A stretch of DNA of 64,000 nucleotides from a virus, in the IMG/VR virus record IMGVR_UViG_3300028859_000013, positions 1 to 64,000 of that record. The stretch is one strand, 5' to 3'. Both the position numbers and the translations under genes were made by a program. Numbering within the stretch: position 1 is the stretch's first letter; each line of letters begins with the position of its first letter. Below, in pieces: positions 27,519-38,229 of the stretch. The notes under the pieces are model-generated. The model ran no database searches. It saw nothing but the letters and a program-made list of their open reading frames with translations, and was not told where the DNA came from.

Positions 27519-28763
27519 ATGGCAAAAAAAACCACACAAACTTCACAAAAAAATAGTTTTGATTTTTCGAATATTTCTGGATTGATTGATACTATGTCAA
27601 AAAAAGAAATTATTTCAATTGAAGATTTTGAAAAAGAAAAAAGTTTTATTTCAACTGGAGTGTATATTTTAGATGCGTTATTATCTAAAAGTATTTTACA
27701 TGGAGGTATATCTAATAATAGAATAACACTGTTGGCTGGGCCAAAACAAACAGGTAAATCGTTTCTTTCTCTAAACATAGCTAGAAATGCTCAAAAATTA
27801 GGATATAATATTATATGGATTGATACTGAATTTTCTATTGAAAAATCAGATTTTGATATGTATGGAATTGATACATCAGATTCTAATAAATTTATGTTAA
27901 TTAGAACTAATATAGTAGAAAAAATTAAAATGTTTATGACTTCTATGCTAGATGATATGACAAAATTAAAAGAAAAAGGTATGGATGTTTCTAAAACAAT
28001 TTTCTTTTTAGATTCAATTGGTATGCTATCATCAGAAAAAGAAAAGGCTGATACTCTTAAATTAGATATTAAACAAGATATGACACGTGCAAAACAAATA
28101 AAATCTCTTGTTAGACTTATAACAAATGACTTAGGATATTTGTCAATACCTCTTGTAGCAACGAATCATATTTATTTAACTCAAGATATGTTTCCTCAAA
28201 CTATCATGTCAGGTGGAGAAGGCTTGTATTATGCAGCTAGTAGTATAGTATTTTTAAGTGATGCAAAATTGAAAACTGGAGAAGAAGATGAAATGGATCT
28301 TGGACGCTCTGGTTCTATTATTACTGCAAAAGCAGGTAAAAATAGATTAGCTAAACCTAAGAAAGTTAAATTCGAAATTGATCATACAAAAGGTATTAAT
28401 CCATTTAAAGGTTTAGATCTGTTTTGTACACCTGAAAATTTTGATAAAATTGGAATTGCAAAAGTTAAACCAGTTGTAAATAAAGAAACAGGAGAAATAA
28501 CTTATCAATCATCTAATAGATGGTATGTTAAACATTTAGATAAAGCAGTCGCTACTGCTCAATTATTTAATAGAAAAGTATTTACGCAAGAAGTATTAGA
28601 AAAAATGGACCCAATAATTTATGATTATTTTAAATATCCATCATATGAAGAATGTATGAAAGAATTAGATGAAATTGATGAAAGATTGAACGAATTAGAA
28701 GATAAAGATATGCTAACTTCCGAAGAATTCGATATTGATTCAGATGATACATTATTTACTTAA
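27519..28763 (+). CDS. uvsX: UvsX/RecA-like recombinase
   Basis: FISTG...LD.LL, GPKQTGKS, IDTE, FLDSIG, DMTRAK, TNH.Y, MSGG.G..YAAS and KNR motifs. Confidence 0.9.
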   Translation: MAKKTTQTSQKNSFDFSNISGLIDTMSKKEIISIEDFEKEKSFISTGVYILDALLSKSILHGGISNNRITLLAGPKQTGKSFLSLNIARNAQKLGYNIIWIDTEFSIEKSDFDMYGIDTSDSNKFMLIRTNIVEKIKMFMTSMLDDMTKLKEKGMDVSKTIFFLDSIGMLSSEKEKADTLKLDIKQDMTRAKQIKSLVRLITNDLGYLSIPLVATNHIYLTQDMFPQTIMSGGEGLYYAASSIVFLSDAKLKTGEEDEMDLGRSGSIITAKAGKNRLAKPKKVKFEIDHTKGINPFKGLDLFCTPENFDKIGIAKVKPVVNKETGEITYQSSNRWYVKHLDKAVATAQLFNRKVFTQEVLEKMDPIIYDYFKYPSYEECMKELDEIDERLNELEDKDMLTSEEFDIDSDDTLFT

Positions 28764-28829
28764 ATATAAATAATAATTAAAAAATAGATAATAAATAAAC
28801 AATAATAAAAATTTAATATAGTACTTTAT

Positions 28830-29549
28830 ATGGCAGATACAACAAACACAAATATGGAACGACATTATTTCGTTCACATTTTGGACAATCCTGATCAATT
28901 TTCAAAAGTAGATCCTTTTTTCTTTAGAAATTCGGATATTCAATTCATTTATACTGTAATAAGAGAAGAATATATTAAAAGCGATAGTCATACAGTACCA
29001 AGCATTAAGCAAATCTATTCAATGGTTAAATTGGCTGATTCAGATAATAAAGTAAATGATAAAGTAATAAAAATGCTTCTTCAATCTGATAATAGCGAGT
29101 TTAGCCCTGAATGGTTATTACCAATGTTCAAAGGTTGGAAAATTCAAAACCAATTAAAAGGCGATGTACTAAAAAGTATTGATATGGTCCGAGGTATAGA
29201 AGATGTAAATTATGATAATGCTCTCGAAATTGCCCAAAAAATGAAAGGTATGTTTGGTAACGTACTTTTAGTTGATGATGATGATAACGATTTAGGATCT
29301 GATTTTGATGACCCTGAATCTCATAAACAAATGATTTCTAAAAATTGTATACCTTCAGGATGGCCATGTATAGATAATATTTTAGGAGGAGGATGGAGTA
29401 AATCAACGTTAAATGTTATTATGGGGGAAACTAATGTTGGTAAATGCTCTCATTATCAGACATTTATAAAAATTAGAAATAAAAAAACAGGAAAAATAGA
29501 AGAAATTAGTATAGGGGATTTTTATGATTCAATTAAAAATAAAATATAA
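28830..29549 (+). CDS. dnaB: gp41/DnaB replicative helicase N-terminal fragment fused to split-intein IntN
   Basis: IPSGW..ID..LGGG.....LNVIMGETNVGK, directly followed by Cys and a 34-aa intein block-A peptide, then stop. Confidence 0.9.
   Translation: MADTTNTNMERHYFVHILDNPDQFSKVDPFFFRNSDIQFIYTVIREEYIKSDSHTVPSIKQIYSMVKLADSDNKVNDKVIKMLLQSDNSEFSPEWLLPMFKGWKIQNQLKGDVLKSIDMVRGIEDVNYDNALEIAQKMKGMFGNVLLVDDDDNDLGSDFDDPESHKQMISKNCIPSGWPCIDNILGGGWSKSTLNVIMGETNVGKCSHYQTFIKIRNKKTGKIEEISIGDFYDSIKNKI
29445..29546 (+). mobile_element. Split intein, N-fragment (34 aa)
   Basis: CSHYQTFIKIRNKKTGKIEEISIGDFYDSIKNKI, beginning at Cys immediately after Walker A GK. Confidence 0.85.
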
Positions 29550-29551
29550 AA

Positions 29552-30665
29552 ATGAAATGTGAAATATGCGGAAAAGAATTTGATACTACTAAAGGTTTGT
29601 CTATTCATTTAACGAAATATCATAACGAAATAATTAAAAAAGAATATTATGATGAATATTTAAAAGATGAAAATGAAGGTATTTGTTATTTCTGCGGAGA
29701 AGAAGCAATTTTTAAAAATATTACAAATGGATATCATAGAATATGTAATTCTAAAATATGTTTAGGTAAAACTAGAGCAACAGCTACATATGAATTTTTA
29801 ATGTATAAATATAATTTATCTGAAATAGATTCAATCAAATTATTAAATAGTAGAATTAAAGATAATAGTATAAAAACTAAAAATGGATTACAAAAAAGTT
29901 TTGAAAAAAACGAAAATTTTTTTAAAGAAAAATCCAGACAATGCGTTGAATATTGGCTAAAAAAAGGATATTCACAAGAAGATTCTGAAATAGAAGTCAA
30001 AAAATCTTTTGATGATATTCATACTAAAACATGGAAAAAACGTAGAGAAAATCCAGAATTATATCAAGATGTTAATACTACTCAAATAGGATATTGGTTA
30101 AAAAAAGGATATTCACAAGAAGAATCAGAATATAAAATAAAAGAGAGACAGAAAACATTTACAATTGAAAAATGTATTCAAAAATATGGTAAATCTGAAG
30201 GATTGAATATTTGGACTGAAAGACAAAAAAATTGGAGTGAAAAAATTGAAATTATGTATAAAGATGGACTTTTCGTAAAATTTAGAAAAGAACCATATTC
30301 TAATAGTGAAATAGAATTATTTTCTGAAGTTTCTAAAAATTTTGATAAATTTTATTTTGGTGATAATCAATTTTATAGATATATTAAAGATATAGGTAAA
30401 ACATTTGCATATGATTTTGTTTGTAAAAAAAAAGGTTATAGAATTTAATGGTGATTATTGGCATTGCAATCCTTTAATTTATAAAGAAGATTTTTTTAAT
30501 AAAAGTAAACAAATGTTTGCAAAAGATATATGGAATTATGATAAAATTAAAATAGATTCAATTGAAAAACTTGGTTATAAAGCATTAATAATTTGGGAAT
30601 ATGATTACAATAATAATAAACAAAAAGTTGTACAGCAATGTATAGATTTTATAAAAAATGATTAA
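29552..30665 (+). CDS. Vsr/DUF559-like free-standing homing endonuclease, broken by a +1 frameshift at an A9 run (30425-30433)
   Basis: ORF 29552-30448 (C2H2 finger, YWLKKGYS repeats, ...FAYDFVCKKK) continues in ORF 30405-30665 (KKVIEFNGDYWH...IIWE). Removing one A joins them. Confidence 0.8.
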
Positions 30666-30933
30666 TATGAGTGATTTTGAAAAGTATATAATAGAATTTA
30701 TAGAAGAAAATGTAGGTGAATATGATGAAATACATATATCAAAATATTTATCTGATAAAATAGAACAATTTGATAATTTTGAAATATATGATGGAGAACA
30801 ATCAATTGTTGGAGATACATATATTGGTAATTTAATATTAACTGATAAAATAATTGAAGTGTTTTATAATATTTTATATGATAATGATGATATAGAATTT
30901 AAACAAAAGGAAGAAGTTGAATATGATAAGTGA
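30658..30933 (+). CDS. Small acidic hypothetical protein inside the fractured helicase locus
   Basis: 91-aa ORF overlapping both neighbours. Confidence 0.65.
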   Translation: MINMSDFEKYIIEFIEENVGEYDEIHISKYLSDKIEQFDNFEIYDGEQSIVGDTYIGNLILTDKIIEVFYNILYDNDDIEFKQKEEVEYDK

Positions 30934-31285
30934 TAATATATATAAAAAATTTGTAGAAACATTTGATGTAGAAGATTGGGAAATTGAAACTGATAATGGT
31001 TGGTCTGATATTAAAGAAATTGGTAAGACTATAGAATATGTTGAGTGGGTATTAAAAACATCGGATGATTTTAGTTTGATATGCGCAGATACTCATATTG
31101 TTTTTGATGAAAATTTCAATGAAGTTTTTGTTAAATATTTGAAAATTGGAGATAAAATAATAACAAAAAATGGTATAAGTGATGTGACAGAAGTTTATGA
31201 AACAGAAAAATCATCTAATATGTATGATTTATCATTATCTGATGATAATCATAGATTTTATTCAGATGGAATTTTATCCCACAAT
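30917..31285 (+). mobile_element. Split intein, C-fragment (up to 123 aa)
   Basis: Block B LICADTH, LKIGD, block F MYDLSL..NHRFY, block G HN followed by +1 Ser (31286). Confidence 0.9.
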
Positions 31286-32011
31286 TCAATGTGGTTACAT
31301 AATATAGCTACTAATGCAGCAAACGCTGGTACTAATGTATTACTTATTACATTAGAGATGGCTACAAGAAAAGTAATGAAGAGATTAGGTTCTATGAGAC
31401 TTAAAATTAAATCTGATGAGTATGATGAAAAATCAAAAGATCCAGTTTTCATGAAACAAAAATTAAATAATCTTAAATCACAATCAACTGTTGGTAATTT
31501 ATTCGATGCTCAACCAGGTAAAATATTTGTTAAAAAATATAATACCAGTGATTGTACTGTTACTGATATTGATAATTATATTAAAAAATTCGAAGAAGTT
31601 AAAAGAATTAAAGTTGGAATGGTAATCGTAGATTATATAAATATTATGTCAATTGAAAAAGGCTATGATATTACTAATATGCTTTACCTAAAAGGTAAAC
31701 ATTTAGCTGAAGGATTAAGACGTGTAGCAGATAAGTATGAATGTGCAGTTATAACTGCAACTCAAACCGATAAGAGCGTTTGGGGTGCTTCTGATATTAC
31801 ACTTAATGCTATTCCTGAAAGTAAAGCGATAGCAGATACATCTGATTCAGTCTGGGGGATCATAAGAAATCCCGAAATGAAAAGAAATAATAGTTATAGA
31901 TTAAAAATATTAAAGTTAAGAGATGGTGAACATCATGAAGAACAAGTTAGATTTGATTTTAATACAAATTTTTTAACTATGGAGAATGATGTTTTAGTAG
32001 GAGTTAAATAA
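30917..32011 (+). CDS. dnaB: Split-intein IntC fused to gp41/DnaB helicase C-terminal fragment
   Basis: Intein ends ...GILSHN, then S-MWLHNIA, ITLEM, VIVDYIN, TATQ, ESKAI..T.D and K.RDG helicase motifs. Confidence 0.9.
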   Translation: MNMISDNIYKKFVETFDVEDWEIETDNGWSDIKEIGKTIEYVEWVLKTSDDFSLICADTHIVFDENFNEVFVKYLKIGDKIITKNGISDVTEVYETEKSSNMYDLSLSDDNHRFYSDGILSHNSMWLHNIATNAANAGTNVLLITLEMATRKVMKRLGSMRLKIKSDEYDEKSKDPVFMKQKLNNLKSQSTVGNLFDAQPGKIFVKKYNTSDCTVTDIDNYIKKFEEVKRIKVGMVIVDYINIMSIEKGYDITNMLYLKGKHLAEGLRRVADKYECAVITATQTDKSVWGASDITLNAIPESKAIADTSDSVWGIIRNPEMKRNNSYRLKILKLRDGEHHEEQVRFDFNTNFLTMENDVLVGVK

Positions 32012-32017
32012 TAAAAA

Positions 32018-32896
32018 ATGGGAAAAAGATTAACTAATGATATATTTATAGAAAGATCAAATATAATTCATAATAATTTTTATAGTTATCCAAATACTAA
32101 TTATATAAATAATGATTGTTATGTGAAAATTGTATGTCCTAAACATGGAGAATTTATTCAAAATGCTAAATCTCATTTGGATGGACATGGATGCTCGGAA
32201 TGTGGAAATAATCATTTTACTACAATTAATTATATAGAAAAAGTTAATATTATTCATAATTTTAAATATAAATATGATAAAACTATTTTTATTAATTATA
32301 GTAGCGATATTATTATTTATTGTGATAGACATGGATATTTTTCACAAAATACTAAACTACATTTAAATGGCCATGGATGTCCAAAATGTGCAAATAATGT
32401 TTATACTAAAAAAGAAATATTAGAAAAAGCTAATAATATACATAATTTTAAATATAAGTATGATGATTTTGAGTTAGATAAAAGAATGAATGAAACTATT
32501 TTAACTATTTATTGCAAAAAACATGGTAAATTTAATCAAAGATTGAACAATCATATACATCAAGCTAATGGCTGCCCGCTGTGTAGTGAATCTAAAGGTG
32601 AGATTGAAATTGAAAATATATTAATTGATAAATTTATTAAACACGAAAGACAAAAAAAATTTGAAAAATGTAAAAATAATAAAAAATTACCTTTTGATTT
32701 TTATCTAATAGATTATAATATATGTATAGAATATGATGGTATACAGCATTATAGTCCAATATATGGAGAAGATAATTTAATTAAAACAAATAAAAATGAT
32801 AATATTAAAAATGAATTTTGCTTAAATAATAATATAAGATTAATAAGAATAAAATATGATGAGAATATCATTGAGAAATTAGAATTTCTCAAATAA
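32018..32896 (+). CDS. Putative homing endonuclease (C.x.HG.F.Q...H..G.GC..C repeats plus PD-(D/E)xK domain)
   Basis: Three Zn-binding repeats. SKGE, LPFDFYL and IEYDGIQH motifs. Confidence 0.8.
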   Translation: MGKRLTNDIFIERSNIIHNNFYSYPNTNYINNDCYVKIVCPKHGEFIQNAKSHLDGHGCSECGNNHFTTINYIEKVNIIHNFKYKYDKTIFINYSSDIIIYCDRHGYFSQNTKLHLNGHGCPKCANNVYTKKEILEKANNIHNFKYKYDDFELDKRMNETILTIYCKKHGKFNQRLNNHIHQANGCPLCSESKGEIEIENILIDKFIKHERQKKFEKCKNNKKLPFDFYLIDYNICIEYDGIQHYSPIYGEDNLIKTNKNDNIKNEFCLNNNIRLIRIKYDENIIEKLEFLK

Positions 32897-32917: not shown

Positions 32918-33625
32918 ATGAAAAATGATGAAGAAATAAATGACGATTTGAATGAAGATTTGGATAACGATTTAGATTTGGAAGAAGATTTAGAAGAAGA
33001 TTTGAATCTATTAGATGAAAATTTAGATGACTCGTCTGAAGAAGATGCATTAGTATCTGATGAATCTATTGATGAAGATGATGAAGATGATGAAGATAAT
33101 GAAATAGATATAATGGTTAAATTCAATACAAATAATCATAAAATTGAAGGTAAACATGCATTATCTAGAGATACAATATTTAAAGGTAAAGTTGAAGATA
33201 ATGTAGATCAGCAAGAATATGATTATAATATTAATCAACAAGAAGATTTTAATTTAAATGATGGATTGCCGATAGAAGCTGGATCATCGTATGAATTTGA
33301 AAGTAAACATTATGAAGATTACGTAGATAGATTAAATTTGCAAAGAGATATTTATGATTTATTAAGTGAGAAAACAGATTTGGATTTTTCTTCAAATAGA
33401 AGAAAACCAAATAAGCAAGCATTTAACGATTATTATAGAATGTTATTAAATAATATTGGAAAAGAATATAGTAAATCTGAAATATTTGTAGAACTTTCTT
33501 ATTATTTCACAGACAACATCTTCAATATGTTTAAATTATTAGATAAAGAATATGCAACACGTATAATAGTAGAATTAAAACAGCGTGGTCATTTAACAAA
33601 TTTAAACAATATAAATTTTATATGA
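32918..33625 (+). CDS. Hypothetical protein with long acidic N-terminus
   Basis: 235-aa ORF, first ~65 aa D/E-rich. Confidence 0.75.
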   Translation: MKNDEEINDDLNEDLDNDLDLEEDLEEDLNLLDENLDDSSEEDALVSDESIDEDDEDDEDNEIDIMVKFNTNNHKIEGKHALSRDTIFKGKVEDNVDQQEYDYNINQQEDFNLNDGLPIEAGSSYEFESKHYEDYVDRLNLQRDIYDLLSEKTDLDFSSNRRKPNKQAFNDYYRMLLNNIGKEYSKSEIFVELSYYFTDNIFNMFKLLDKEYATRIIVELKQRGHLTNLNNINFI

Positions 33626-34491
33626 GCAAAGTAAAAAATGTAGATGATTATATAAAAGAAGTTTCAATAATACATAATTATTATTATGATTATAGTTTAG
33701 TTTTATATATTAATGCTCATACTAAAATAAAAATTATTTGTCCAATACATGGAATATTTGAACAAGAACCTCTTAATCATAAGAGATATGGTTGTAAAAA
33801 ATGTGGTAAATTATTAGATGAAAAAGTTGTATTAAATAGATGTACTAAAATACATGGAGATAGATATGATTATTCTAAATTTAAATATATTGGTATGTAT
33901 AATAATTCTACTATAATATGTAAAATTCATGGTGAATTTGAACAACAAGTGATTAATCATTTAGCAGGTAAAGGTTGTCAAAAATGTGCACCAAATTATA
34001 AAAAAGATAAAAAAACGATTTTAAATAAATTAAATAAAGTTCATAATAATAAATATGATTATTCATTGTCTATTTTTAATAGAACAAAGGATATAATAAA
34101 AATAATATGTCCTTTACATGGAGAATTTGAACAAATATTAAATAATCATTTAAGAGGAAATGGTTGTCCTTTATGTGATGAAAGTAAAGGAGAAAGAGCG
34201 GTAGAAAGTTATCTAATAGAGCATGATATTATTTTTGAAAGACAAAAAAAATTTGAAGGTTGTATGAATAAAAGATTATTATCTTTTGATTTTTATTTAC
34301 CTGATTATAATTTATGTATAGAATTCGATGGTGCTCAGCATTTTATAGAAGTTCTTAATTGGGGTAATCTTGAATATACTAAAGAAAATGATGAAATTAA
34401 AAATATTTTTTGTTTAAATAATAATATTGATTTATATAGAATATCATATAAAGATAATATACTTGGTAGATTAAATGCCAAATTTAAATAA
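33622..34491 (+). CDS. Putative homing endonuclease, paralog of 32018-32896
   Basis: Same repeats. SKGE, FDFYL and IEFDGAQH motifs. Confidence 0.8.
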   Translation: MSKVKNVDDYIKEVSIIHNYYYDYSLVLYINAHTKIKIICPIHGIFEQEPLNHKRYGCKKCGKLLDEKVVLNRCTKIHGDRYDYSKFKYIGMYNNSTIICKIHGEFEQQVINHLAGKGCQKCAPNYKKDKKTILNKLNKVHNNKYDYSLSIFNRTKDIIKIICPLHGEFEQILNNHLRGNGCPLCDESKGERAVESYLIEHDIIFERQKKFEGCMNKRLLSFDFYLPDYNLCIEFDGAQHFIEVLNWGNLEYTKENDEIKNIFCLNNNIDLYRISYKDNILGRLNAKFK

Positions 34492-37197: not shown

Positions 37198-38229
37198 ATG
37201 GTAAAATATAAAAAATGTGAAATATGTGGATTAACTTTTCCTTATACTACTGGAAAATTTACAATTCATTTAATGGAAGAACACAATATATCTTTAAAAG
37301 ATTATATTATTAAATATGAATTAGATGGTATAACTCCAAAATGTCAATGTGGTTATTGTGATGATGATGCACCTTTTTATAGAGGTACATTTTTGACTAA
37401 AAGTAGTGAACATAAAAAATATAAATCTTTAAAGGAAGGTTATATAAAAAAATATGGTATACCTAAATGTGTAAATTGTGGAGAAGATGTAAAATGGCAT
37501 AGAGGAATACCAAATATTTATTGCTCACCAAGTTGTTTTCCTTGTCAATGGAATCAAGAGAAAGTTAAACAAACTGTTAAAGAAAGATATGGAGTAGATA
37601 ATGTATCATTTTTAGATGAAGTTAAAGAAAAAATATCAAAATCTAAAAATGAAAAAAATGAAAATGAAAAAAATGAAATTTTAAATAAAATTAAAAAAAC
37701 TTGTTTAGAAAGATATGGTACAGTATCTTTTTTTAGTACTAAATTATTTTATGATAAAAATAAAACAACTATGCTTGAAAGATATGAAGTAGATCATCCT
37801 TCTAAAATGATGAAGAATAGGGAGAGTGCAAGTAAGAGAATGATAGAAAATAATTCAAATTTTGATTTGGATTTTAGAAATTGTTATAACATTAAGAGAT
37901 ATAAAGATACTGATTTGTGTTATCAGAGTTCATATGAAGAAGACTTTTTAGATTTATGTGATAAGTATCAAATACTTAATAAAGTTGAAAATGGACATAC
38001 ATATAAGTTTTTAGAAGAAGATTATTCATATGGATTAAGGACAATTACTGATTTTTGTATTGATGATATGGAGATTGAGATTAAATCATCTTATATATTA
38101 GAGAAACAAGGAGGAGAAGAAGTTATTGATATAAAAAGAAAATCTGTTAAAAGAGCAGGTAAATATTATTTATTAATTTTAGATAAAAATTATTCTGAGT
38201 TTAATAAGTATTTCAAAAAATTATTTTAA
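37198..38229 (+). CDS. Putative free-standing homing endonuclease (Zn fingers, ERYG repeats, PD-(D/E)xK)
   Basis: CEICG, KERYGVDN and CLERYG repeats. QSSYE...TDF...EIK. TTTAATATATA lies 4 nt upstream. Confidence 0.7.
   Translation: MVKYKKCEICGLTFPYTTGKFTIHLMEEHNISLKDYIIKYELDGITPKCQCGYCDDDAPFYRGTFLTKSSEHKKYKSLKEGYIKKYGIPKCVNCGEDVKWHRGIPNIYCSPSCFPCQWNQEKVKQTVKERYGVDNVSFLDEVKEKISKSKNEKNENEKNEILNKIKKTCLERYGTVSFFSTKLFYDKNKTTMLERYEVDHPSKMMKNRESASKRMIENNSNFDLDFRNCYNIKRYKDTDLCYQSSYEEDFLDLCDKYQILNKVENGHTYKFLEEDYSYGLRTITDFCIDDMEIEIKSSYILEKQGGEEVIDIKRKSVKRAGKYYLLILDKNYSEFNKYFKKLF

Follow-up and report, generated by a model that had tools for sequence, protein, structure and literature searches.

We analysed a 64,000-nucleotide window of viral DNA (positions 1 to 64,000 of IMG/VR record IMGVR_UViG_3300028859_000013) and found that its DnaB/gp41-type helicase is encoded by two separate genes, the coding sequence being broken inside the Walker A motif. 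Very probably, the break marks a natural, atypically split class-1 intein that lies between the Walker A Lys and Ser, undergoes trans-splicing, and was split when an endonuclease gene inserted into a contiguous mini-intein. Sequence, comparisons within the family and fold are shown here, and conserved residues lead us to predict that the intein is almost certainly functional. A huge phage appears to rely on protein trans-splicing for an essential replication enzyme. The broken gene consists of the following features, which lie on the plus strand, as do all open reading frames (ORFs) of this region:

28830-29549, plus strand: N gene, a 239-amino-acid ORF made up of the 205-amino-acid N-extein and the 34-amino-acid N-terminal intein fragment (IntN), then TAA.
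28830..29444, plus strand: N-extein of the DnaB/gp41-type helicase, 205 amino acids, ending in GETNVGK (Walker A); from the ORF, PHROG 19 and junction alignment.
29445..29549, plus strand: IntN, 34 amino acids, Cys1, beta1-beta2-alpha1, then TAA; from alignment of homologues.
30917 or 30923 to 32011, plus strand: C gene, an ORF of 364 amino acids from TTG at 30917 or of 362 amino acids from ATG at 30923.
30923..31285, plus strand: C-terminal intein fragment (IntC), 121 amino acids, with block B CADTH, block F NMYDL..DDNHRFY and block G ILSHN.
31286..32011, plus strand: C-extein, 241 amino acids and stop, beginning at Ser+1 of Walker A (GK|S) with SMWL; from DnaB_C and PHROG 19.

The two exteins add up to a helicase of 446 amino acids (205 + 241) and match consecutive parts of the PHROG 19 profile (DnaB-like replicative helicase), with the N half at positions 160-366 and the C half at 368-575; the C part also matches Pfam DnaB_C (E = 8e-16). 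In a tblastn search of phage records, huge uncultured phages came out as the nearest relatives: LR756501 (735 kb), LR745206 and LR756502/4 (about 640 kb), with the Lak phages more distant. The intein-less helicases of LR756501 and LR745206 are single ORFs of about 450 amino acids, and because these uninterrupted homologues (GETNVGK|SMWL and GETNGGK|SLWM, respectively) align straight across the interruption in the window, the extein boundaries are exact: Walker A is restored once the 34 + 121 residues are taken out. Identity to relatives is 38-80% for the N-extein, compared with their helicase N halves or N parts, and 60-93% for the C-extein. A preliminary description of this DNA, made from its letters alone, had placed the break at GETNVGK | SMWL and counted 205 + 241 = 446 extein residues and a 34-residue IntN, and the ORF layout and the intein-less homologues bear out all of these. 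Its IntC of 123 residues needs correction to 121, because the start Met of the relatives equals the ATG at 30923 (MLSDN.. versus MISDN..) and not the TTG at 30917. The same tblastn search returned an apparent intein in gp41 of Synechococcus phage S-SSM7 (92% query coverage), which we rejected as an alignment artefact since the gene is an ordinary 461-amino-acid gp41.

Both intein fragments carry the residues expected of a class-1 intein, with Cys1 directly after GETNVGK and Ser+1 directly after SHN. Cys1 is present in all 23 IntN sequences examined, and the window's IntN is 50-81% identical to the IntN of nine relatives and follows the family motif C..(I)RNKKTGEI.E..IG[DE]F[YF]. Within IntC, G26, H58, D102 and S119 are invariant in the family alignment, and conservation is at least 90% at H110, H120 and N121. 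The blocks B, F and G that had been noted earlier in IntC are all in place, as is the contrast between a basic IntN (net charge +3) and a strongly acidic IntC (net charge -16), and these opposite charges hold across the family (0 to +7 for IntN, -5 to -16 for IntC).

An AlphaFold model of IntC, built with a 34-row family alignment, is an all-beta HINT domain with a predicted local distance difference test score (pLDDT) of 91.9. Foldseek returned 42 matches to this model in the PDB at E up to 1e-3; those listed are nearly all inteins, the few others being related HINT domains (bacterial intein-like, or BIL, domains and the hedgehog autoprocessing domain). The best match was VidaL, with a template modelling (TM) score of 0.77, a root-mean-square deviation of 1.3 Å and 30% identity; third was Cat, an atypically split intein (TM 0.68-0.70). 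A phmmer search of PDB sequences likewise ranked VidaL first (6vgv, E = 2.6e-6), followed by PolB16 and gp41-1 (E = 0.007), which makes VidaL the closest solved relative of the window's IntC. IntN alone gave only chance matches in the PDB because it is too short a query.

We then compared the site of the break with contiguous members of the same family. Of the best 150 family clusters, 15 are contiguous mini-inteins that sit directly after the Walker A GK, and the window's IntN and IntC, when joined, align with such mini-inteins of 153-174 amino acids from end to end, with nothing missing. This alignment, which had been proposed earlier as a check, is colinear throughout and irregular only in a linker of variable length that coincides exactly with the break. 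The split point was placed by an intein-only alignment on the model of P0156, a 615-amino-acid helicase with a contiguous intein, in which strands at 207-212 and 218-222 and a helix at 223-238 are followed by a segment with pLDDT below 50 (238-249), right after the helix, and then by a beta-rich body. On this model, the window's IntN ends within the helix-to-linker transition after alpha1. In the nomenclature of atypical split sites, S1 lies after beta2 and S2 after alpha1 (PMC13014065), and the modelled position corresponds to S2; the 34-residue IntN also lies within the range of about 15-37 residues that goes with an S2 break.

Conserved residues and characterised relatives lead us to infer the following course for docking and splicing. 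The two helicase halves would be translated separately, and the basic 34-residue IntN, comprising two strands and a helix, would dock on a largely pre-formed, acidic 121-residue IntC, completing the HINT fold. Splicing would then take its standard four-step course, in which Cys1 undergoes an N-S acyl shift, Ser+1 carries out the trans-esterification, the terminal Asn cyclises and an O-N shift completes the reaction, yielding a 446-amino-acid helicase with an intact GETNVGKS P-loop. It is plausible that replication of the phage depends on the intein. The split itself would have arisen when a free-standing Vsr-like homing endonuclease gene entered the DNA encoding the post-alpha1 loop of a contiguous mini-intein.

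A putative gene of this kind occupies the gap between the two helicase genes, together with a small orphan ORF:

29552..30665, plus strand: free-standing, probably Vsr-like (EDxHD-type) homing endonuclease gene, frameshifted; from homologues and PHROGs.
29552-30448, plus strand: 298-amino-acid endonuclease piece.
30405-30665, plus strand: 86-amino-acid endonuclease piece, overlapping the 298-amino-acid ORF.
30658-30933, plus strand: orphan acidic 91-amino-acid ORF, overlapping the endonuclease stop and the IntC start; from the ORF list.

An IMG/VR search for related loci returned 30 (numbered here with the prefix L), 11 of which represent the helicase allele. Intact, colinear, single-ORF homologues of the endonuclease (56-83% identity) are found in L005, L010, L011 and L013, and when aligned to them the two pieces in the window abut at ..YDFVCKKK / KVIEFNGDYWH... 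The window copy is not an intact ORF: its frame is broken by one extra A in a run of nine (A9, 30426-30434), which is the gene's only defect, and a run of eight restores an intact ORF of 370 amino acids. This frameshift adds to the preliminary description. The A9 run may reflect a sequencing error in a homopolymer, a genuine mutation that inactivates the gene or marks its decay, or a slippage site that yields some full-length product; slippage could be transcriptional and throttle endonuclease expression.

The endonuclease has a C2H2-like zinc finger at its N-terminus, carries the conserved motifs YDF, KK[IV]IEFNGDYWH and IWE, and matches PHROG 22677 and 3339 ('homing endonuclease'). When its profile was compared with the PDB, the best nucleases were I-Bth0305I (3r3p) and Vsr (1vsr, 1cw0, 1odg), all weak (E = 0.2-0.7) and all covering the same region, and Pfam returned MTES_1575 alone, below its cut-off (E = 0.002). 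Judged by sequence, these features fit the Vsr-like family described by Dassa et al. 2009 (PMC2677866), although the E values fall short of proof, and the layout described earlier, a split intein flanking a Vsr-like endonuclease gene, stands with Vsr matches of that weak order. The zinc-finger region has a further likeness within the window, at 37213-37377 (41% identity over 59 amino acids).

The strongly acidic 91-amino-acid ORF, which the preliminary description did not mention, overlaps both of its neighbours by a few bases. It had no counterpart in the 30 related loci, the phage records or IMG/VR and no Pfam or PHROG match, and the protein atlas yielded nothing usable. Because the endonuclease gene of the relatives stops about 20 nucleotides before IntC, this ORF is an extra insertion in this genome; in DNA of about 20% GC it is unlikely to be open by chance.

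The same split helicase allele occurs in at least 11 IMG/VR contigs. The full order of uvsX, N half with IntN, gap, and IntC with C half is present in nine of the 11 loci (L004-L006, L009-L013 and L030), and the helicase loci of L007 and L008 end at a contig edge. The window's own UvsX-like recombinase gene reads:

27519-28763, plus strand: UvsX-like recombinase gene; from the ORF list.

Five loci (L005, L010, L011, L012 and L013) have a gap of about 1.1-1.2 kb with an intact endonuclease homologue. In four others (L004, L006, L009 and L030) the gap is just 84-147 nucleotides and the endonuclease gene has been lost, leaving a remnant of its C-terminus in L004, L009 and L030, yet the split is kept and IntN and IntC are intact. 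A word-indexed search for this IntC returned 216 clusters at 90% identity, nearly all of them proteins of 355-365 amino acids with DnaB_C, from ENA, JGI, Logan and NCBI assemblies.

Several points weigh against a functional split intein here. None of the Pfam intein models matched IntC at E = 0.1, and kinship is therefore established through the PDB sequence search, the fold and the family searches. Block B has Ala (CADTH) where most inteins have Thr, although VidaL has the same residue. Pairwise ratios of nonsynonymous to synonymous change (dN/dS, Nei-Gojobori) were about 0.1-0.5 for IntC, 0.16-0.6 for IntN and 0.04-0.3 for the exteins, values that indicate purifying selection but are rough because synonymous distances are large and near saturation. 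Splicing activity itself we infer throughout from sequence. Purifying selection on both fragments in an essential gene argues for an active intein.

One alternative is that the intein is a decayed relic, with the helicase halves acting as a non-covalent two-chain enzyme or being dead while another helicase is encoded elsewhere in a genome of roughly 700 kb. We consider this improbable. The frameshifted endonuclease gene does indicate some decay of the element, and since the contig represents about 16% of the genome by the CheckV estimate, a second helicase could lie elsewhere. However, every catalytic residue of the intein is intact and conserved, purifying selection acts on both fragments, and relatives without the endonuclease gene keep both fragments intact. 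Left unspliced, moreover, the 155 extra residues would sit in the ATP-binding loop, and the 111-kb contig has no other DnaB_C match above the Pfam cut-off.

A second alternative accepts trans-splicing and sees in the intein a regulated switch and not a purely selfish passenger, with conditional splicing, through Cys1 redox or the expression timing of the halves, gating the onset of replication. Conditional splicing of P-loop DnaB inteins in mycobacteria is documented (PMC6195587, PMC7360933), and the split persists after loss of the endonuclease gene. That persistence would follow just as well from how hard it is to delete an intein precisely, however, and the sequence shows no sign of a sensor; we regard a switch as highly unlikely. 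The least credible alternative is that an assembly or sequencing artefact, or joining at the RNA level, hides a contiguous gene (a maxi-intein with an internal endonuclease domain, or an intron): the homopolymer frameshift in the endonuclease gene could be a sequencing error, but IntN ends in TAA, the endonuclease gene starts in another frame with its own ATG, both intein pieces are conserved at the protein level, the repetition of the layout in independent ENA, JGI, Logan and NCBI assemblies argues against an assembly artefact, and a scan of 28500-32500 against Rfam, with E up to 1, gave no match and no group I or II intron, on which we reject the RNA-level splicing that had been named earlier as a way for the trans-splicing reading to fail.

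Turning from the allele to its family, we found with an exhaustive HMMER search that, among clusters formed at 50% identity, 889 match this IntC with E up to 1e-3 and 514 with E up to 1e-10. For the majority of the best 150 clusters the match begins no more than about a dozen residues into the protein, which marks most of these 150 as split forms. Among the IMG/VR loci, the same IntN/IntC pair also occurs in non-helicase hosts, namely TerL, an SMC/Rad50-like protein and a ClpB-type AAA+ protein, where IntC is 43-58% identical to that of the window, IntN is 37-47 amino acids long with the motif C..RNKKTGEI..IG[DE]FY, and a homologous endonuclease gene usually lies between the pieces. In all 13 non-helicase loci in which the IntN gene was read, IntN follows ..GK and IntC is followed by Ser or Thr. 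A Pfam scan of 96 family representatives gave the following host counts:

Terminase_6N (TerL): 46 representatives.
DnaB_C (helicase): 18 representatives.
AAA_2 (ClpB-type): 4 representatives.
ABC_tran: 2 representatives.
AAA: 2 representatives.
KaiC-like: 1 representative.
Clamp-loader lid (Gp44_lid): 1 representative.

By these counts, the window's intein represents the helicase branch of a family that seeks P-loops and is hosted mainly by TerL. The +1 residue is Ser or Thr in 141 of the 143 representatives with the splice-junction motif (Thr 88, Ser 53) and Cys in the other 2. The 111-kb contig holds a single intein of this family. We found no publication that describes the family, and no paper joining an atypically split intein with a helicase, in a literature search of incomplete coverage.

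We tentatively suggest, as a possibility somewhat short of an even chance, that the window's intein is one leaf of a very large clade (at least 514 clusters, E below 1e-10), for which we found no name, of S2-split inteins with Cys1 and Ser/Thr at +1, many with a Vsr-like endonuclease gene, and that this clade has spread to the GK|S/T site of Walker A in six or more unrelated ATPase families (TerL, DnaB/gp41 helicases, Rad50/SMC-like proteins, ClpB-type AAA+ proteins, ABC ATPases and a clamp loader). Such a clade would be at once a P-loop-generalist mobile element and a library of natural short-IntN inteins, and for protein semisynthesis that library would not need an extein cysteine. The family illustrates how one intein-endonuclease pair can spread to unrelated ATPases via their common P-loop.

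Some TerL members of the family have a more complex layout. In L021 (6001-7339), L022, L023 (6001-7402) and L024, TerL carries this family at the P-loop and a second, distant IntC-like segment (25-28% identity) about 700 nucleotides downstream, so that these terminases would be joined from three pieces. Two other loci, L025 (1178-3337) and L028 (2043-4202), have an open frame of 720 amino acids with an IntC-like segment from about residue 391; the sequence before it matches neither the window's IntN nor its endonuclease, and the frame may represent a fusion or a different inserted domain.

To place the split intein of the window among known ones, we tabulated the natural atypically split inteins, with IntN of 15-37 amino acids, that have been published (PMC13014065, PMC11766414, PMC10189870), giving fragment lengths in amino acids and the residues at 1 and +1:

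AceL-TerL: IntN 25, IntC 104; residue 1 Cys, +1 Cys.
GOS-TerL: IntN 37, IntC 115; residue 1 Ser, +1 Cys.
Cat (consensus Cat-TerL, PDB 6dsl): IntN 30, IntC 104; residue 1 Cys, +1 Cys.
VidaL: IntN 16, IntC –; residue 1 Cys, +1 Ser.
PolB16: IntN 15, IntC 168; residue 1 Ser, +1 Ser.
Window intein: IntN 34, IntC 121; residue 1 Cys, +1 Ser.

VidaL, a Lake Vida metagenome intein whose host is a T4-like helicase gene, resembles the window's intein in being natural, atypically split and cysteine-dependent, with Cys1 and Ser+1, and the two share a C-A-x-x-H block B and an NHR[YF]Y...SH block F/G. It differs in its split, which lies after beta2 (S1) and leaves an IntN of 16 residues, whereas the 34-residue IntN of the window includes helix alpha1 and is of the S2 kind. 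For VidaL (PDB 6vgv/6vgw), PMC13014065 cites Burton et al. 2020 (PNAS). PolB16 is split at S1, after beta2, as VidaL is.

AceL-TerL and GOS-TerL share the S2 split of the window's intein, with IntN of 25-37 and IntC of 104-115 amino acids. The AceL/GOS/Cat inteins come from phage genes in metagenomes, and in their docking model a short disordered IntN binds a partly folded IntC (PMC13014065, PMC11766414). They differ in having Cys+1 (PMC11766414), and in GOS-TerL Ser1, where the +1 residue of the window's family, at the site immediately following the Walker A GK, is Ser or Thr; with Cys+1, they must occupy a different insertion site. Similarity of CatC was marginal, with E = 0.45 to the window's IntC and 0.027 to a TerL-hosted member of the family. 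On account of that E value of 0.45, the different +1 residue and the different insertion site, the window's intein lies outside the AceL/GOS/Cat clade, while by split site and fragment sizes it works like that group.

In gene layout the closest precedent is the set of fractured genes of Dassa et al. 2009 (PMC2677866), which have the same order of N half with IntN, free-standing Vsr-like endonuclease gene, and IntC with C half. In gp41-1 to gp41-9 the host is likewise a phage gp41-type helicase beside uvsX, and endonuclease-free alleles occur in both systems, as gp41-7 (PMC2677866) and as the window's relatives. The inteins gp41-1 to gp41-7 are canonically split, however, with a long IntN and a short IntC, as the preliminary description had said of the characterised gp41 inteins, and lie at residue 356 of P-SSM2 gp41 (PMC2677866). 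Relative to the gp41-1 type (IntN about 88 amino acids, IntC about 37, position 356), the fragment sizes in the window are reversed, the endonuclease gene lies near the N-terminus of the intein, and the insertion is in Walker A. That position, between the Walker A Lys and Ser/Thr, is a 'classic' intein insertion site (PMC5050341), and the P-loop inteins TerL1-a and DnaBi1 (PMC5050341, PMC4760082, PMC6195587) likewise sit between the Walker A Lys and the Ser/Thr nucleophile, but are contiguous, many with an internal endonuclease domain.

The core of the preliminary description, a natural split intein in a helicase P-loop whose IntN is short and whose IntC is long, is upheld, as is its remark that short-IntN inteins are rare and valued for semisynthesis. 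Its claim of novelty was overstated, given that AceL-TerL, GOS-TerL, VidaL and PolB16 are published and that the family comprises 889 clusters, mostly TerL and mostly split. We therefore regard the window's intein as a further example of a known, rare kind, belonging to a large and apparently undescribed family; this kind of system has been described before, and the surprise for a specialist is moderate. Split inteins whose first piece is short enough for peptide synthesis are wanted for protein labelling and semisynthesis, and few natural ones have been characterised (AceL-TerL, GOS-TerL, VidaL and PolB16). The window adds an S2-type example that leaves Ser, not Cys, at the junction. As it shares only about 30% identity with the nearest solved intein, it may also be orthogonal to existing split-intein tools.

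The window belongs to a contig of 111,323 bases with a CheckV completeness of about 16%. Since its nearest relatives are phage records of 420-735 kb, the source genome is probably several hundred kb, with about 22% GC. Scans for promoters and terminators gave counts not above those of shuffled sequence. Downstream of the helicase lie two further endonuclease-like genes:

32018-32896, plus strand: endonuclease-like gene; PHROG 559.
33622-34473: endonuclease-like gene, paralogue; PHROG 559.

These free-standing paralogues (45% identity) flank the ORF at 32918-33625, and their products combine repeats of a DUF723-type zinc ribbon with a DUF2726-like C-terminus; homologues of the pair occur at the same place in L006 and L013. 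On the other side of the helicase, uvsX is intact in the window and is interrupted near residue 221-233 in L010 (682-4016), by an insert of about 2 kb, and in L013 (2241-4071), by one of about 0.5 kb.

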